A stretch of DNA of 64,000 nucleotides, taken from Parcubacteria group bacterium M6-OD1-1 (GTDB lineage: Bacteria; Patescibacteriota; Minisyncoccia; GWC2-36-17; M10-OD1-4). The notes beneath the pieces are model-generated. The model was not told where the DNA came from and did no database searches. It saw only the letters and a list, made by a program, of their open reading frames with translations. Positions 36,106 through 58,398 of the stretch are shown here, in pieces. The stretch covers positions 28,326-92,325 of the forward strand of contig LSNK01000004.1 of assembly GCA_003056085.1 (NCBI GenBank), read 5' to 3'. The position numbers were made by a program, and so were the translations under genes. Position 1 is the first letter of the stretch, and each line of letters starts with the position of its first letter.

Positions 36106-37491
36106 ATGTATTCTGTAATTTTATGCGGAGGCTCAGGCACAAGGCTGTGGCCGTTAAGCAGAAAAAATTTTCCCAAACAATTTTTAAATTTGTACAGTGA
36201 CAAGTCTCTTTTGCAGGAAACTTTTTTGAGGATGTCTGAAGTTATGCCAAAGGAAAATATATTTTTTTCAACCAACAACGATCATTTTTTTAATGTATTT
36301 AATCAGATAAAAGAGGTGTATCCAGGTTTTAAAAAAGAAAATATTCTTATAGAGCCAAAAAGTCTAAATACGGCGCCCGCTATTTTACTTGCCGTTAAAC
36401 ATTTAAAAGAGAACATAGGAGTAAGCAGGAAAGATCTGATTTTTTTTCTTCCGGCTGATCATTTTATATCAGATAAAAAAGCATATCAAACTCTTTTTGA
36501 AAAAATTAAAAATAAAATTAAAGACGAAGTGGGGATAATAGGGATTGTTCCAAAAAAGCCGGAAACGGGATATGGGTATATAAAAAAAGGAGAAAAAAAA
36601 GAAGGGTATTTTAAGGTCTCTGAGTTTAAAGAAAAACCGAGTCTGGAGGTTGCAGAAAAATATTTAGAGTCGGGAGATTATCTGCAAAATTCAGGAATAT
36701 ATTTTTTTAATACAGAAACATTTCAAAAAGAACTTAAAAAATATGCTCCAAAAATGTATGAATTTTTTGGTAAAAACTTTGAAGATTTCATAAAAGATTT
36801 TAAAGAATTGCCGGCTATTTCCATAGACTGCGCAATATCTGAAAAATCAAACAATATTATAGTTTTTGAAGGAGATTTCGGCTGGAATGATATAGGGTCT
36901 TTTGACAGTTTGGCGGGAGCTCTTTTTGAAACAAAAGAGTATAATAAAAAACATATAGGAATAAATTCAAAAAATATTTTTACTCATAGTACGGGTGATT
37001 ATCTTGTGGTTACTTCAGGGGTGGAGGATTTAATAATAGTTGAAAACAATGACAGTATATTGGTTCAGAAAAAAGGCAAGAGCGAAGATGTCAAAAAAAT
37101 AACTGATTTTTTAAAAGAAAAAAAACATAAAGAAATAGAGCATAACATAGTAGTTCACAGACCGTGGGGGAAATATGAAATTTTAATAGATTCTCCAACT
37201 TATAAAGTAAAAAAAATTACTGTCTATCCTGGGGCAAAACTAAGTTTGCAGTCGCATCAACACAGAGCGGAGCATTGGGTTGTTGTCAGTGGTGTTGCCG
37301 GCGTTGTAAATGGAGACAGAGAATTTCAGCTTAAGGAAAACGAAAGCACATATGTTCCGGCGCTCAATCGCCATCGTTTAAGCAATCTAGGGAAGGTAAA
37401 TTTAGAAATGATAGAGGTGCAGACCGGAGATTATTTGGAGGAAGATGACATCGTAAGATACGATGATATTTACAACAGGATAAAAGAATAG
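36106..37491 (+). CDS. manC: mannose-1-phosphate guanylyltransferase / mannose-6-phosphate isomerase (bifunctional, cupin C-term)
   Basis: N-terminal LCGGSGTRLWPLSR nucleotidyltransferase motif and a C-terminal cupin. Confidence 0.8.
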   Translation: MYSVILCGGSGTRLWPLSRKNFPKQFLNLYSDKSLLQETFLRMSEVMPKENIFFSTNNDHFFNVFNQIKEVYPGFKKENILIEPKSLNTAPAILLAVKHLKENIGVSRKDLIFFLPADHFISDKKAYQTLFEKIKNKIKDEVGIIGIVPKKPETGYGYIKKGEKKEGYFKVSEFKEKPSLEVAEKYLESGDYLQNSGIYFFNTETFQKELKKYAPKMYEFFGKNFEDFIKDFKELPAISIDCAISEKSNNIIVFEGDFGWNDIGSFDSLAGALFETKEYNKKHIGINSKNIFTHSTGDYLVVTSGVEDLIIVENNDSILVQKKGKSEDVKKITDFLKEKKHKEIEHNIVVHRPWGKYEILIDSPTYKVKKITVYPGAKLSLQSHQHRAEHWVVVSGVAGVVNGDREFQLKENESTYVPALNRHRLSNLGKVNLEMIEVQTGDYLEEDDIVRYDDIYNRIKE

Positions 37492-37561: not shown

Positions 37562-40375
37562 ATGAAAAAGAATACATCAAAAAACAATGAAATAGTTGTA
37601 AGAGGGGCAAGGATGCATAATCTTAAAAATATTAATCTTAAGATTCCAAGAAATCAACTGGTTGTTATCACGGGGCTTTCCGGTTCCGGTAAATCTTCTT
37701 TGGCTTTTGACACTATTTATGCAGAAGGACAAAGGAGATATGTTGAGTCTTTGTCGTCTTATGCAAGACAGTTTCTTGGTGTTATGGGAAAGCCAGATGT
37801 TGATTCTATAGATGGGCTTTCTCCGGCAATCTCAATAGATCAAAAAAGTGTTTCTCAAAACCCAAGATCAACCGTGGGAACTATTACAGAGATATATGAC
37901 TACTTAAGGCTTCTTTTTGCAAGGGTCGGTTCTCCTTTTTGTCCGGAGTGCGGCAAGCCTATATCAAGCCAAAGCACAACCCAAATAGTAGACAGCATAT
38001 TAAAAATTCCAAAAAAATCAAAAATAGAAGTTTTGGCTCCTGTTGTCAGAGGAAAGAAAGGAGAACATTTAAATATTTTTTCAATGATTGAAAAAGCGGG
38101 ATATGTAAGAGTTCGGGTAAATGGTGAGGTTATGACTGTTAAAGATGCTCTTTTATTGAATCTTGATAGATACAAAAAACACAGCATTGAGGTTGTTGTA
38201 GATAGACTTGTTGTAGAAAAAAATATAGATAGAGTTCGTTTGGCGGACTCTGTTGAATCGGCTTTAAAGATGGGCGAAGGTCTTGTTATTGTTTCTCAAA
38301 AAGAAAAAAAAGATAAGCTTTTTTCCGAAAAATTTGCTTGCGCTGATTGCGGTATTTCAATAACAGAGATAGAGCCAAGAAGTTTTTCTTTCAATAGCCC
38401 ACATGGAGCATGTTATTCTTGTACAGGTATTGGAAAAAAGCTGGAGGTTGATCCGGATCTTATTATAGCAAATGAAAAACTTACTTTGGCGGAAGGCGCT
38501 ATAAAACCTTGGTCGCAGGCATCAAGGTCAAATTGGCATTGGCTTGCTTTGGAAGACTTAGCAAATAATTTAGATTTTTCTTTAAATACACCGATAAATA
38601 AATTGCCGAAAGATGTTTTTCAGATTGTTTTATACGGCGATCCAAAATCACAGTTTGAAGGAGTTATTCCAAATCTTGAAAGAAGGTGGAAAGAAACAGA
38701 TTCTGATTGGATTCGTTCAGAAATAGAAAAGTATATGGTGGTAAAAAAATGTCCAGCCTGTGGAGGGAAAAGACTAAAAAAAGAAATGCTTTCTGTTTTG
38801 TTCAATAACAAAAATATTTCAGAGGTAACCGCTTTGTCTATCTTGGACACAAAAGAGTTTTTTTCAAATGTAAAACTTACAAAAACTCAGGCAAAGATAG
38901 CCAACTTAATAATAAAAGAAATATTATCTCGCCTTCAATTTTTAACGGATGTTGGCTTGGGGTATTTGTCTTTAGATAGAGAGTCTGAGACATTGTCCGG
39001 CGGAGAAGCGCAGAGAATTCGTTTAGCTACGCAAATCGGCTCTCGTCTCGTTGGGGTTTTGTATATTTTAGATGAGCCGTCCATTGGCTTGCACTCAAAA
39101 GACAATGAAAAACTTATAAAAACTCTTAAAGATTTAAGAGACTTAAATAACACGGTTATAGTTGTTGAGCACGACGAAGAAACTATTCTTGCGGCGGATT
39201 GGGTTATTGAAATAGGTCCTGATGCGGGAGCAAAAGGCGGTAAAGTTGTTTTTGAAGGAACACCGGGTCAGCTTAAAAAGTCAAAAACTATAACCGGTCT
39301 TTATCTTTCCGGGAAAAAGAAAGCTTACGAGGAAAGCCAAAAGCTCAAAAACAACAACTTAGGGGTTGAACCCCTAAGTGGGTTTTTGGAGGTTGTTGGA
39401 GCTGAGGAAAACAATTTAAAAAATATCAATATCAAAATACCGCTTTCTGAGTTTGTTTGTATTACGGGAGTTTCCGGTTCCGGAAAAAGTACTTTTGTGG
39501 ACAATATATTGGCAAAGGCTTTAGCTCAGAAGTTTTACAACTCAAAAGAAACCCCGGGAAAGCATAAAGAAATTTTAGGGGCTGAAAATCTAAATAAAGT
39601 AATACACATAGATCAGTCGCCGATCGGCAGAACTCCAAGGTCAAACTCGGCTACATATACCGGTGTCTTTACTTATATCAGAGAACTTTTTGCAAATACG
39701 CAGGAGGCAAAAATAAGAGGATATAAAGTAGGAAGGTTTAGTTTTAATGTAAAAGGCGGCAGATGCGAGAGCTGCGAAGGACAGGGAATTAAAAAAATAG
39801 AAATGCATTTTCTTCCGGATGTATATGTTGAATGTGAAGAGTGTGAAGGGACAAGATACAATAAAGAAGTTTTAGAAATAAAATACAAAGATAAAAATAT
39901 CGCAGAGGTTTTGGAGATGAGCGTTAATGAAGCAGAAAAATTTTTTGAAAATATTCCAAAGATAAAAAATATTTTAGCGACCTTAAAGGAAGTTGGTATC
40001 GGCTACATTCATCTTGGACAAAGCGCAACGACGCTTTCTGGCGGTGAGGCGCAGAGAATAAAACTTGCAGATGAACTTTCAAGGCGTGATACGGGAAAAA
40101 CTCTGTATATATTGGACGAGCCGACAACAGGACTTCATTTTGATGATGTTTCAAAACTTTTAGTGGTCTTAAGAAAATTGGTTAATAAAGGAAATACGGT
40201 TTTAGTTATAGAGCATAATATGGATGTTGTAGCGGCGTCTGACTGGATAGTGGACTTGGGTCCTGAAGGCGGCAATGGCGGAGGTCAATTGGTTGCGGAA
40301 GGAAGACCAAAAGATATAATAAAAACAAAGGCAAGCTATACTGGAAAGTTTCTTAAGAAATATATTTCCAGTTAA
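37562..40375 (+). CDS. uvrA: excinuclease ABC subunit A
   Basis: Two ABC modules ([23 protein letters not shown] x2), zinc-finger Cys clusters, 937 aa. Confidence 0.95.
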
Positions 40376-40404
40376 TCACACAGGAGATTCAATCTTCTAC
40401 AAAA

Positions 40405-40430
40405 AAGCGGGCTTTTAGCCCGCTTTTTTG
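40405..40430 (+). terminator. rho-independent terminator of uvrA
   Basis: AGCGGGCT-TTTA-GCCCGCT followed by TTTTTT. Confidence 0.7.
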
Positions 40431-40476
40431 TTTGCAAGTTCATGTTTTTAACTGTGCATAACTTTTATAAAGTGGT

Positions 40477-40505
40477 TTGACTTTGTATATAAGTGGGGAT
40501 ATAAT
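40477..40505 (+). promoter_or_regulatory. consensus sigma70 promoter TTGACT-N17-TATAAT
   Basis: Exact 17-nt spacer and perfect -10. Lies ~265 nt upstream of the mraZ ATG. Confidence 0.5.
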
Positions 40506-40511
40506 TAACTG

Positions 40512-40770
40512 TAGTGGTAGGAAGTGGGGAAAAGTGGTAAATACATTTGTCTCTGCTTAAAACCGCAAAGGTCATTATTAGCGGTAAATAGAGCTAAGTC
40601 CCACAGATTTGTCTTAAGCAAACAAATCTGTAGAATCTCTCAATACGGCTTAGCTCTGTTTGCTTGCATAGGGACACTAAGATCTTTTGTAAAAAAATTT
40701 AACTTGGGGTTATACATTTGGGTGTTCCTATTTTGTAAGGGAGCAAAGAAATGTGTAAGTCTTAGAAATT
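40512..40770 (+). ncRNA. ~260-nt structured 5' leader / candidate cis-regulatory RNA upstream of mraZ
   Basis: Non-coding by inspection; the only ORFs here are implausible. Nested stems: GAGCTAAG...CTTAGCTC enclosing CAGATTTGT-cttaagcaa-ACAAATCTG, and CCGC...GCGG. Confidence 0.35.
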
Positions 40771-41202
40771 ATGTTTTTAGGAGAGTATAAGCATTCAATA
40801 GACGAAAAAAGCAGATTGGCTATTCCTTCAAAATTTAGGAGTTCCTTAAAAGGTGGTGTGGTTATAACAAAAGGTTTGGATAGTTGCCTTTTTTTACATC
40901 CGATGTCTGAATGGAAAAAATGGGCAGATGAACTTTCAAAACTTCCGGTTTCAAAGTCCGACTCAAGAGCCATCAAAAGGCATATGTTTGGCGAGGCTAT
41001 TGATGCGAAACTTGATAAGCAGGGAAGAGTTGTTTTGCCTGACCGTTTAAAAAAGTTTGCAAATATAAAAAACAATGCTGTTTTGCTTGGGCTTTACAAT
41101 AGGCTTGAGATTTGGGACGAGAAGACGTGGGAAAAATATAAACTAAAGACAGAGAAACAAAGCACGGAAATAGCGGAAAGGATGAGTGACTTGGGAATAT
41201 GA
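40771..41202 (+). CDS. mraZ: transcriptional regulator MraZ
   Basis: MFLGEYKHSIDEKSRLAIPSKFR and a duplicated SpoVT/AbrB-like fold. First gene of the dcw cluster. Confidence 0.85.
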   Translation: MFLGEYKHSIDEKSRLAIPSKFRSSLKGGVVITKGLDSCLFLHPMSEWKKWADELSKLPVSKSDSRAIKRHMFGEAIDAKLDKQGRVVLPDRLKKFANIKNNAVLLGLYNRLEIWDEKTWEKYKLKTEKQSTEIAERMSDLGI

Positions 41203-42083
41203 TTCATAAACCAGTACTTTTAAATGAAATATTGGAATTTTTTAATCCGAAACAGGGGGATATTTTTATAGACGGCACTGCAAACGGAGGCGGACATACT
41301 CTTGCTTTATGGGATAGGGTAAAGCCAACAGGGAAAGTTTTAGCTATAGATAAAGATAAGGATATAGTCAAGAAACTAAAAGAAAAGGTAAAAGAGGATA
41401 ATAAAAATATTCAGATTGTGTCTGACAGTTATGCAAATTTAAAAAATATCGTAGATCAAAAAGAGTTCGGAAAAGTTTCTGGAATCTTGTTGGATTTAGG
41501 ATATTCAAGTTATCACATAGATGTTTCGGGGCGCGGTTTCTCGTTTCAAAAAGATGAACCCTTGATAATGAGATACGAACCGGACATTGAGATTGGAAAA
41601 GATTTGACGGCGTATGAAGTTATTAATAGTTTTTCTGAAAATGATATCGCAGATATTATTTACAAATACGGAGAGGAGAGAGCTTCCAGGAAAATAGCAA
41701 AAAGAATAGTTTTAAAAAGAAAACAAAAAAATATAGAAACTTCAGGTGAGTTGGCGGAAATAATAGAGGAAGTATTTTTTAAAAAACATTTTAAGATACA
41801 TCCGGCCACCAAGTCTTTTCAAGCTTTAAGAATATTTGTAAATGATGAATTGGGAAACTTGGAAAGGGCGCTTCCTCAGATGCATGAAATCTTAAAGACG
41901 GGAGGCAAGGTTGCTATTATATCTTTTCATTCGTTGGAGGACAGAATAGTTAAGAATTTTTTTAGGGATAATAAAGATAAATTTAAGATAATTACAAAAA
42001 AACCTGTTGTTGCCGACAAAGAAGAAACAAAAGAAAATCCAAGGGCAAGGTCAGCTAAATTAAGAGTAGCGGAAAAAATATGA
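41199..42083 (+). CDS. rsmH: 16S rRNA (cytosine1402-N4)-methyltransferase
   Basis: HKPVLLNE N-terminus and SAM-MTase motifs (DGTANGGGH, DLGYSS). Confidence 0.9.
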   Translation: MIHKPVLLNEILEFFNPKQGDIFIDGTANGGGHTLALWDRVKPTGKVLAIDKDKDIVKKLKEKVKEDNKNIQIVSDSYANLKNIVDQKEFGKVSGILLDLGYSSYHIDVSGRGFSFQKDEPLIMRYEPDIEIGKDLTAYEVINSFSENDIADIIYKYGEERASRKIAKRIVLKRKQKNIETSGELAEIIEEVFFKKHFKIHPATKSFQALRIFVNDELGNLERALPQMHEILKTGGKVAIISFHSLEDRIVKNFFRDNKDKFKIITKKPVVADKEETKENPRARSAKLRVAEKI

Positions 42084-45531: not shown

Positions 45532-45603
45532 GGCCCCTTCGTCTAGTGGTTAGGACACATCCCTCTCACGGATGAAACAGGGGTTCAATTCCCCTAGGGG
45601 CTA
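45532..45603 (+). tRNA. tRNA-Glu (anticodon CUC)
   Basis: Hand-folded cloverleaf. Acceptor GGCCCCT/AGGGGCT, anticodon stem CATCC/GGATG with loop CTCTCAC (U33, CUC, A37), T-arm AGGGG-TTCAATT-CCCCT. No encoded CCA. Confidence 0.7.
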
Positions 45604-57933: not shown

Positions 57934-58398
57934 TTATTTTTCGGAGTATACAACCTCAATATTCCAGTCTTCATTTACAAAAAGGCCAAACACAGGAATC
58001 CCCAATTGCCATTTTGAAAGTACTTTTCTGCAAAATTCCTTGATTTCTTCAATGTGTTCTTCTTTTGAGATTGGATTGCCGGCACAATCATGATGTCCGC
58101 ATATCACAATGCCGCAAGAGAGGTGTTTTTCTATAGAAAATAAAGCTTTTTTTTGGACAGTTTCTTCATGTAGTCCTGAACCGTCGTTTGTCAAATTGTC
58201 CATCCCCGGCTCGGTTATTGTGTCTACATATTTAACGTTGAATTGTTCCTTGACCCATTTTGTAACAGGCTCTTGGGTCCGGCCGTCTATGCAGTTTAGT
58301 GCGGTTGCAAATGTATCATCTTTATGCATTTTTTTTGCTCCATTCTTAATTTTAAAAAGCACTTTTGATATTATAGAATACTTTTCCTTAAAAGTCAA
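57934..58398 (-). CDS. beta-class carbonic anhydrase-like protein (minimal)
   Basis: NCIDGR and GHHDCAG resemble the beta-CA Zn-ligand motifs CxDxR and HxxCG. Only 154 aa. Confidence 0.45.
   Translation of the reverse strand: MTFKEKYSIISKVLFKIKNGAKKMHKDDTFATALNCIDGRTQEPVTKWVKEQFNVKYVDTITEPGMDNLTNDGSGLHEETVQKKALFSIEKHLSCGIVICGHHDCAGNPISKEEHIEEIKEFCRKVLSKWQLGIPVFGLFVNEDWNIEVVYSEK

Follow-up and report, generated by a model that had tools for sequence, protein, structure and literature searches.

A conserved structured RNA in the mraZ leader of a clade of Patescibacteria

The stretch of DNA analysed here (the window, 64,000 nucleotides of contig LSNK01000004.1 from Parcubacteria group bacterium M6-OD1-1) carries the first genes of a division and cell wall (dcw) operon, and the subject of this analysis is the leader of its first gene, mraZ (40771–41202, + strand). 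The local gene order is a manC-like gene (start at 36106), uvrA (37562–40375), mraZ, rsmH, an ftsL-like gene, and a class B penicillin-binding protein (PBP) gene. MraZ was recognized by its match to Pfam PF02381 at 3.9e-38, which together with the canonical MFLGEY N-terminus sets the ATG at 40771, and the genes 3′ of mraZ match the Pfam Methyltransf_5 and PBP families. Between uvrA and mraZ there are a promoter, an operator for the MraZ protein, and a leader of approximately 260 nt, made up of ~25 nt of operator, ~100 nt of conserved RNA, and ~100 nt that are lineage-specific. It is highly probable that an MraZ-operated promoter is here combined with a conserved structured leader RNA. The fuller reading, in which dcw expression is under two layers of control, the known MraZ promoter and operator plus a cis-acting translational operator RNA, is plausible, if somewhat short of probable.

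A conserved RNA structure in the mraZ leader

Loci containing mraZ were gathered in two ways, by protein look-up and through a single scan of metagenome data for the invariant 19-mer CTCTCAATACRRCTTAGCT. The leader element was found in 11 distinct sequences from seven lineages, all of them metagenomic: the window, L001, L062, L063, L064, the pair L065/L067, and the group L068/L069/L071/L085. The z-scores for leader folds were computed against dinucleotide shuffles; because the leader sequences are related, counts of shuffles are not to be taken as probabilities. In the window, the leader (40512–40775) has a predicted folding energy of −84.9 kcal/mol, compared with −55.8 ± 4.1 kcal/mol when shuffled (z = −7.1; 0 out of 200 shuffles as good), which bears out the proposal of a structured leader in an earlier note on this DNA. 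The length of about 260 nt given there needs qualification, since it is the segment from 40566 to 40667 that is conserved as RNA, whereas the first ~25 nt are a DNA operator and 40668–40770 is a lineage-specific insert. The conserved element is therefore ~100 nt in the window and ~90–118 nt across the family, being 90 nt in L071.

From its 5′ end, the element begins with a single-stranded linker, CAAAGGUCAUU (40566–40576; this and the other parts of the element are on the + strand), and a variable spacer, which is 4 nt in the window, to 40580, and 4–8 nt across the family. The linker is invariant or nearly so in the 11 sequences, although its flanks cannot be aligned, and is unpaired in every per-sequence fold. 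It is followed by the 5′ strand of the helix P1, GCGGUAAAUAGAGCUAAGUC (40581–40600), which contributes to the 20 pairs of the RNAalifold consensus, and by a variable apical hairpin, P2 (40603–40631), stacked on P1. On the 3′ side there is a bulge (40632–40646) containing the 10-nt CUCUCAAUAC (40637–40646), which does not differ among the 11 sequences and stays unpaired in every fold, and then the 3′ strand of P1, GGCUUAGCUCUGUUUGCUUGC (40647–40667), with one bulged U. Nested repeats, an outer helix enclosing a 9-bp hairpin, had been described here. The repeats are present, with GAGCTAAG (40591–40598) and CTTAGCTC (40649–40656) as the outer inverted repeat; the inner hairpin has 10 bp rather than 9, with 40603–40612 pairing with 40622–40631.

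The same architecture of P1 and P2 was obtained for each of ten members folded singly (z from −4.6 to −7.5), and RNAalifold on the full leader alignment gave P1 as the only consensus helix. Standard pairs account for 99.1 % of the 220 cells of P1 (20 pairs in 11 sequences). Ten of the 20 pairs vary, seven of these on one side, mostly G-C/G-U or U-A/U-G, and three on both sides, such as the changes from G-C to A-U and from A-U to G-C in L062 and the C-G versus U-A at column 25. When the 3′ partner of P1 is slid by 1–3 columns, pairing drops to 30–50 %, although P1 was derived from the same sequences and this control therefore favours it. The position of P2 is shared by all lineages, but its sequence and length are unrelated between them (5–11 bp; L062 has two hairpins here and L065 a nested one). 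Together, P1 and P2 make up 25–31 quasi-continuous base pairs, with P1 contributing −28 to −44 kcal/mol.

The pairing is strand-specific. Approximately 33 cells of P1 are G-U pairs, which on the opposite strand would be A-C mismatches, and a covariance model of the element (R1) scores 75–104 bits on the + strand against 18–35 bits on the − strand; from these G-U pairs and this asymmetry, the RNA is that of the + strand, the strand of the mRNA. Sequence conservation is confined to particular parts of the element. No variation is seen in the 10-nt bulge or in the top 9 bp of P1, and little or none in the 11-nt linker, while P2, the 3′ half of a 5′-terminal hairpin described below, and the DNA 5′ of the −35 hexamer are too diverged to align. 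Such invariance amid neighbours that cannot be aligned points to sequence-specific recognition by something. With its conserved structure on the mRNA strand, its location in a 5′ untranslated region (UTR), and its constant context, between promoter and mraZ in 11 out of 11 cases, the element has the general features of a structured cis-regulatory leader. That a conserved structured leader RNA exists here is considered very likely.

This RNA does not belong to a described family. At gathering thresholds, an Rfam search of the whole window and 20 related loci returned only tRNAs, and a search of three leaders at E up to 10 returned only uvrA-terminator matches or generic long-hairpin miRNA models far below threshold. 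The mraW motif (RF01746) gave no match in the window or the relatives, either at the gathering threshold or at E up to 10, and no tRNA-like fold was found by ARAGORN. Mimicry of the 16S rRNA around C1402, the target of RsmH, or of tRNA anticodon loops would presumably involve only coincidences of 4–5 nt. A faint resemblance of ACGGCUUA to the 3′ strand of RNase P helix P4, remarked on previously, is spurious; the GG of ACGGCUUA varies as RR in the relatives and pairs within P1, no Rfam model of RNase P RNA is matched, and the element is only ~100 nt long. The suggestion in the earlier note of an undescribed cis-regulatory leader RNA has thus held, in that the Rfam searches were empty while ~100 nt of conservation with covariation was found in 11 relatives; the regulatory role itself is a matter of interpretation. 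The element is undescribed, restricted to a clade, and present in no RNA database, and it probably constitutes a second, post-transcriptional control on the operon.

The alternative that had been raised, a small RNA (sRNA), is unlikely. A consensus scan of 39800–41400 found no terminator or attenuator in the leader, a negative to be read with caution since the same scan, with 0 sites in this interval, overlooked the uvrA repeat at 40399–40431. In all members P1 is followed by A-rich, not U-rich, sequence. With no intrinsic terminator inside the 5′ UTR, a leader sRNA of the UpsM type was rejected. Nor is there a second promoter in the leader, or room for one; a weak TTGTCT-N16-TAGAAT (40609–40636) is inside P2 and is not conserved. 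Lacking both a terminator and space for a second promoter, the leader is unlikely to give rise to a free-standing sRNA or to act as an attenuator.

Upstream of the linker, a 5′-terminal hairpin, P0 (40514–40566, + strand), is predicted, in which the RNA of the operator pairs with a downstream segment ending just before CAAAGG. In the window it has −19.9 kcal/mol and z = −5.2, and in nine of the 11 members z is between −2.3 and −5.3. Box 1 of the operator pairs with the last 4–10 nt of the hairpin in those nine, and the downstream segment differs in sequence between lineages. P0 comes from per-sequence folds, the MAFFT alignment having left its variable 3′ half unaligned, and as a second structure it is suggestive only.

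Downstream of the element, the window has a specific insert of 103 nt (40668–40770, + strand) before the mraZ ATG. It is not present in any of the 10 relatives, where P1 ends 7–17 nt before the ATG. The insert is single copy in the window, its only other copy being in L084, from the same organism, and because it is single copy a mobile repeat was rejected. It contains a hairpin at about 40703–40765 (z = −3.6), a Shine–Dalgarno (SD)-like AAGGGAG (40737–40743), and a four-codon mini open reading frame (ORF), ATG TGT AAG TCT TAG (40751–40765), which ends 5 nt before the mraZ ATG.

The element is always in the uvrA–mraZ leader, with uvrA as the neighbour wherever the upstream sequence is readable. 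Its carriers have MraZ proteins 65–90 % identical to that of the window. It is absent from L002, L074, L087, L088, and L090 (57–63 % MraZ identity) and, based on R1, from about 60 more distant mraZ loci; R1 found no further copy in the 64-kb window nor in about 65 other mraZ loci. Of the matches to the 19-mer in metagenome data, five were true, all of them mraZ leaders and one of them the window's own contig (VAPM010703639.1), and six were chance matches in unrelated sequence. The element is restricted to the mraZ leaders of one Patescibacteria clade.

The mraZ promoter and MraZ operator

The promoter of mraZ (Pmra, 40472–40505, + strand) is composed of a −35 hexamer, TTGACT (40477–40482), a 17-nt spacer, and a −10 hexamer, TATAAT (40500–40505), with two GTGG boxes. 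The hexamers match the consensus at 11 out of 12 positions, and this is the sole such site in 39800–41400. As had been reported, it is about 265 nt from the mraZ start, the end of the −10 hexamer being exactly 265 nt from the ATG. In the 64-kb window TTGACN-N17-TATAAT occurs twice, against 0.11 expected; the other match is at 58370–58398 on the − strand (TTGACTTTTAAGGAAAAGTATTCTATAAT). The −35 hexamer is identical in all 11 relatives and the −10 hexamer in nine of 11, L065 and L067 having TATACT. Two extra GTGG boxes are found on the + strand, one just 5′ of the −35 hexamer (40472–40475) and one in the promoter spacer (40493–40496), each 21 nt, or two helical turns, from the next box. The hexamers and both extra boxes are kept in register in most of the 11 relatives.

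The promoter had also been placed directly after the uvrA terminator. The terminator is present, as a hairpin (40399–40431, + strand) whose two 15-nt arms, ACAAAAAAGCGGGCT/AGCCCGCTTTTTTGT, form a perfect inverted repeat around a 3-nt loop and precede a T6 run, but it ends 45 nt upstream of the −35 hexamer and is not directly adjacent. The uvrA stop is at 40375, and counterpart terminator hairpins are present in the relatives. This terminator isolates the mraZ promoter from uvrA read-through.

The operator, GTGGTAGGAAGTGGGGAAAAGTGG (40514–40537, + strand), was overlooked in the earlier note. It is composed of three direct GTGG boxes separated by 6-nt spacers, giving a 10-nt period, and begins 1–3 nt after the predicted transcription start at ~40511–40513. 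GTGGN6GTGGN6GTGG occurs once in the 64 kb, against 0.00 expected, and is located just upstream of mraZ in 32 fetched loci. Given the 21-nt intervals to the extra boxes, all five GTGG boxes would be on one face of the helix. The MraZ protein encoded in the window keeps D11, K13, R15, D82, and R86, with both of the DXXXR DNA-binding motifs (D11-E-K-S-R15 and D82-K-Q-G-R86). Published MraZ boxes are GTG(G/T) with six spacer nucleotides, usually three in number, and in M. genitalium the start site is inside box 1 (PMC12957436); for the Firmicutes, the MraZ-binding consensus is GTGGNNNNNAGTGGNGNNNNGTGG (bioRxiv 10.1101/2022.02.09.479790). The operator in the window agrees with both the GTG(G/T)-N6 boxes (PMC12957436) and GTGGNNNNNAGTGGNGNNNNGTGG (bioRxiv 10.1101/2022.02.09.479790).

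Judged by sequence, this layer is ordinary autorepression of Pmra by MraZ at the DNA level, which is already-known biology. MraZ would bind five phased GTGG boxes around a strong sigma-70-type promoter and so repress its own operon. As in Pmra of E. coli, B. subtilis, and Mycoplasma, there are direct GTG(G/T)-N6 boxes at or just after the promoter of an operon that begins with mraZ; the three contiguous boxes, the predicted start at box 1, and the DNA-binding residues of MraZ are likewise shared with the known promoters. It differs from these in having two additional phased boxes inside the promoter, at −40 and in the spacer, and in that the operator is followed by a leader of 150–260 nt, compared with a few tens of nucleotides in E. 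coli, where the mraZ leader is 38 nt.

A DnaA-box-like 9-mer, TTATGCACA (40453–40461, − strand), is present 5′ of the mraZ promoter. The DnaA-box consensus TTATNCACA is found upstream of the −35 hexamer in all 11 family members, with variation only at the N position; relative to the −35 hexamer its offset ranges from −24 to −98, with positions both 5′ and 3′ of the uvrA terminator, and in L065 and L067 its orientation is inverted. Matches to the DnaA box number seven in the window, against 3.2 expected, with no cluster. The conservation suggests that the site is a real protein site, and DnaA input into dcw transcription is possible. In other Patescibacteria (L007, L011, L012, L014, L015, L060, and L061), the boxes 50–100 nt upstream of mraZ read GTGGATAA or CTGGGGATAA. 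These match the DnaA-box core TTATCCAC in reverse, and the arrays of MraZ boxes in these loci overlap DnaA-box-like words.

Possible modes of action of the leader RNA

The genome in the window is that of a low-GC (33 %) member of the Patescibacteria, or candidate phyla radiation, and the closest relatives of its mraZ are all from Patescibacteria metagenome-assembled genomes. Its use of SD sequences is nearly nil, 9 out of 38 long ORFs in the window, which is on a par with the 19 % background; initiation should therefore be governed chiefly by local structure. TATAAT-like hexamers are often only 10–20 nt before the start codons in the window, for example those of uvrA (37562) and the manC-like gene (36106), suggesting that very short leaders are the norm. 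Against this background of short leaders and little SD use, the long structured mraZ leader is exceptional. In most family members the mraZ start codon has no SD sequence, and in eight out of 11 sequences, from four lineages (L001, L063, L065/L067, and L068, L069, L071, and L085), the base of P1 is 7–10 nt from the AUG. The spacing is longer in L062 (16 nt), L064 (17 nt), and the window (103 nt), all three of which have an SD-like purine run; in L064 and the window, an ORF reaches the mraZ start.

It is because of this conserved spacing between P1 and the AUG, along with the invariant unpaired bases, that a translational operator is favoured. The 5′ UTR of ~150–260 nt would fold into P0, which includes the transcribed operator, and the conserved ~100-nt element, such that the base of P1 would sit where an SD duplex would normally lie on the 30S subunit. 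A trans-acting factor, probably a protein, would recognize the RNA by its invariant unpaired nucleotides, and the binding of this factor would set the access of ribosomes and, secondarily, the decay of the mRNA. We infer the transcription start, translation as the level of action, and both the existence and the nature of the factor from the predicted folds and their conservation, and this specific mechanism is accordingly offered as possible rather than probable. In translational operators such as the E. coli thrS and rpsO leaders, a folded RNA directly before the start codon has unpaired bases that are read by a protein. The likeness is by analogy only, in a folded RNA next to the start codon with conserved unpaired bases; in the mraZ leader the factor is putative, an SD sequence is lacking, and no site evidently mimicking one in tRNA or rRNA was found.

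Several observations weigh against a translational operator. The mraZ AUG is not sequestered in the predicted folds, with a probability of being unpaired of 0.3–0.8 in most members, so that the folds give no evident sign of repression by structure alone. In the window the element is 103 nt from the AUG, so that a distance-tolerant function, in stability, processing, or transcription, fits better than strict ribosome docking. The 20-bp helix is also a plausible RNase III substrate, every member has an ORF running through the element, half of the P1 pairs are invariant, and the family has only 11 related metagenomic sequences from seven lineages. The regulatory role is itself a model, in which the transcription start is predicted and the factor hypothetical. 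Two simpler versions of translational control were rejected. Sequestration of an SD sequence by the anti-SD-like CCUCUC of the bulge would require complementary purine runs, which are present only in L062, L064, and the window, in a genome that barely uses SD sequences; base pairs between the mraZ start region and either the bulge or the 3′ strand of P1 were seen, by inspection, in the window only and are not conserved.

Translation of the leader itself was also considered. No plausible ORF had been recognized in this region previously, yet there is an 88-codon ORF with a GTG start (40524–40790, + strand) that ends 20 nt inside mraZ, although its peptide is not conserved. None of 2000 dinucleotide shuffles reaches 88 codons (mean 31), and the ORF has no Pfam match. 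In 11 out of 11 sequences the frame CAA AGG TCA TTn nnn GCG GnA AAT AGA GCT AAG (QRS[LF]xAxNRAK) is open over the linker and the P1 5′ strand. The leader ORF of L085 overlaps the mraZ ATG and that of L064 is in frame with mraZ, which explains the annotation there of a 195-aa 'MraZ' (P0003; L064 3001–3588, WFOG01000107.1), an artefact whose true start is the MFVGEY ATG at L064 3157. Ribosomes might thus start at a GUG or AUG in the box region and translate the linker and the P1 5′ strand, thereby melting P1 and being delivered to the SD-less mraZ start by termination–reinitiation or coupling; the act of translation would matter, not the peptide, and the structure would be a gate. In a genome without SD sequences and with normally very short leaders, such a long structured leader needs a route for loading ribosomes, and the ORFs of the window, L064, and L085 exceed those of shuffles (p about 0.001–0.007).

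Several points tell against this model. Three GTGs at 10-nt spacing give a start codon in every frame by construction, and the conserved block reflects shared ancestry, so that the 11 sequences are not independent; with the block discounted, only the extension of the ORF in the window is unusual (about 0.01, uncorrected, by our own estimate). Between close relatives, +1 indels change the frame (in the linker of L062, and between L068 and both L071 and L085), and the start position and the type of start codon vary. In four lineages the ORFs are no longer than chance. The stop is within P2 in L001, L063, and L065 and at the top of the P1 5′ strand in L062, yet the bulge and the P1 3′ strand beyond these stops are equally conserved. 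In the relatives the ORF is conserved only where the RNA element is, and even those sites in CAA AGG TCA that would be synonymous are invariant, pointing to selection at the level of nucleotides. Given the differing starts, the frame shifts by +1 indels (L062, L071, and L085), and the invariant synonymous sites, a conserved peptide was rejected. The arrangement is similar to attenuation of the ermC type, in which a short ORF overlaps the 5′ strand of a hairpin adjoining the regulated start codon; here, in contrast, start codon, frame, and peptide vary and the regulated AUG is outside the hairpin. Control by upstream translation is, overall, fairly unlikely.

A similar standing, fairly improbable though not negligible, is given to a constitutive structural role, with P0 as a 5′ stabilizer and P1/P2 as a stabilizing or RNase III hairpin that would set the half-life of the dcw mRNA with no ligand or regulator. 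In most members P0 is stable, and it starts no more than about 3 nt from the predicted 5′ end; the 25–31 quasi-continuous base pairs of P1 and P2 are in the RNase III size class, the AUG is free, and a function tolerant of distance would accommodate the 103-nt insert. This would leave unexplained the 21 invariant unpaired nucleotides of the linker and bulge and the nine invariant pairs at the top of P1, while P2 and the flanks change freely, as well as the 7–10-nt spacing to the AUG kept in four lineages. Those invariant unpaired or junction nucleotides, flanked by covarying helices and a variable-length stem, are as would be expected of an aptamer, and the position immediately upstream of the start codon would suit a riboswitch, in which the bulge and the 5′ linker would form a pocket for a cell-wall or division metabolite. 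The pocket might involve a 5-bp linker–bulge pseudoknot, GU(C)AUU:AAUAC, which is possible in 10 of the 11 sequences; four of its five pairs never vary, L068 has one mismatch, and there is no covariation. P1, with 20 bp and −28 to −44 kcal/mol, is far too stable as a switching helix, and there is no conserved alternative pairing, terminator, or platform sequestering the ribosome-binding site, the AUG being mostly unpaired, which together lower this reading. There is also a single gene context in a very narrow clade, and hence no regulon to hint at the ligand. A riboswitch is thus improbable.

Further from the evidence are an RNA element acting on transcription and an element that is not an RNA at all. 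Processive antitermination or pausing of the put or EAR type, modifying RNA polymerase for the long dcw operon, would suit a promoter-proximal location, would tolerate the insert, and would use a bulged hairpin with conserved unpaired bases; there is no similarity to EAR or other antitermination families in Rfam at any threshold, the AUG spacing kept in most members would be unexplained, and it is very unlikely. More improbable still is that the conservation reflects a DNA inverted repeat (a protein site or cruciform), a residue of recent ancestry, an RNase P fragment, or a free-standing sRNA. GAGCTAAG and CTTAGCTC are a DNA palindrome, the family is small and closely related, and RNase P RNA adjoins mraZ in some bacteria, such as Pelagibacter (PMC2704228). 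The half-sites are, however, separated by 35–65 variable nucleotides, the blocks are invariant amid flanking DNA that is saturated with change, and the 33 G-U cells and the strong strand asymmetry of the model scores are those of an RNA. The absence of an Rfam match to RNase P and the paired, RR-varying GG of ACGGCUUA argue against the RNase P fragment, as do the lack of a terminator, a promoter of its own, and a tRNA-like fold against an sRNA. Strand-specific pairing has already largely refuted a non-RNA explanation.

A broader claim, that the element is a new class of sensor RNA of this Patescibacteria clade, either a riboswitch or a translational operator with a helix in place of the SD duplex, is improbable, though slightly less so than a riboswitch taken by itself. 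In the latter form, the intramolecular 20-bp helix would take the site on the ribosomal platform normally used by the SD duplex. If this is true, translation of the cell-division operon would depend, through this RNA, on a metabolite or factor that might come from the host, in ultrasmall bacteria that lack SD sequences.

Structured leaders of the dcw operon

The dcw operon sets when and how bacteria divide. To our knowledge, its control beyond MraZ autorepression is poorly understood, and the regulation of division is essentially unknown in the Patescibacteria, ultrasmall organisms of which most are uncultivated and which apparently depend on other bacteria as hosts. A conserved RNA lying 3′ of the MraZ operator and 5′ of mraZ would provide the operon with a second checkpoint, at the post-transcriptional level.

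The earlier note held that most characterized mraZ leaders are short, which overlooks both the UpsM leader (PMC8266604) and the mraW motif RF01746 (PMC3890552). In the Rhodobacteraceae, a long mraZ leader containing UpsM places cell-division genes under additional post-transcriptional control; UpsM, whose 3′ end is set by an intrinsic terminator in the 5′ UTR, accumulates as an Hfq-bound sRNA, which RNase E cleaves when it pairs with the sRNA StsR (PMC8266604). The leader described here is similarly long, structured, and located between the only dcw promoter and mraZ, but no terminator was found in it, it has no sequence or structural similarity to UpsM, and it belongs to another phylum. The mraW motif is a structured RNA of unknown function in the 5′ UTR of the actinobacterial dcw cluster, at mraW (rsmH), and is restricted to its clade (PMC3890552). 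Conserved structure, a dcw 5′ UTR, and restriction to a clade are shared with the element in the window, which nevertheless does not match RF01746, and the two appear to be independent inventions. With UpsM and the mraW motif as the earlier cases, the element would bring the number of independent structured dcw leaders to three, suggesting that dcw leaders are recurrent sites of RNA-based control. The small size of the element (90 nt in L071) makes it tractable in vitro; in practice, work on it is limited by its very narrow distribution, in 11 sequences, and by the lack of a cultivated host.

In other Patescibacteria, the Woykebacteria among them, a different conserved block, AGCCTGCCYTNNTCTGGACAGCRGG, is found in a long mraZ leader, 65–97 nt before the ATG (L023 at ~2760, L024 at ~2936, L025 at ~2935, and L028 at ~2916). 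It has no match in Rfam. Structured mraZ leaders may therefore be recurrent and lineage-specific in this phylum.

Two further observations were made in passing. A tRNA gene (45532–45603, + strand; 63.8 bits) just 3′ of the first dcw genes is the sole Rfam match at gathering level in the 64 kb. In addition, the contigs L013, L018, L049, and L056 are labelled 'uncultured Gammaproteobacteria', although their mraZ loci are nearest to those of the Patescibacteria (up to 54 % identity) and have the same GTGG box arrays; the bins from which they come may be mislabelled.

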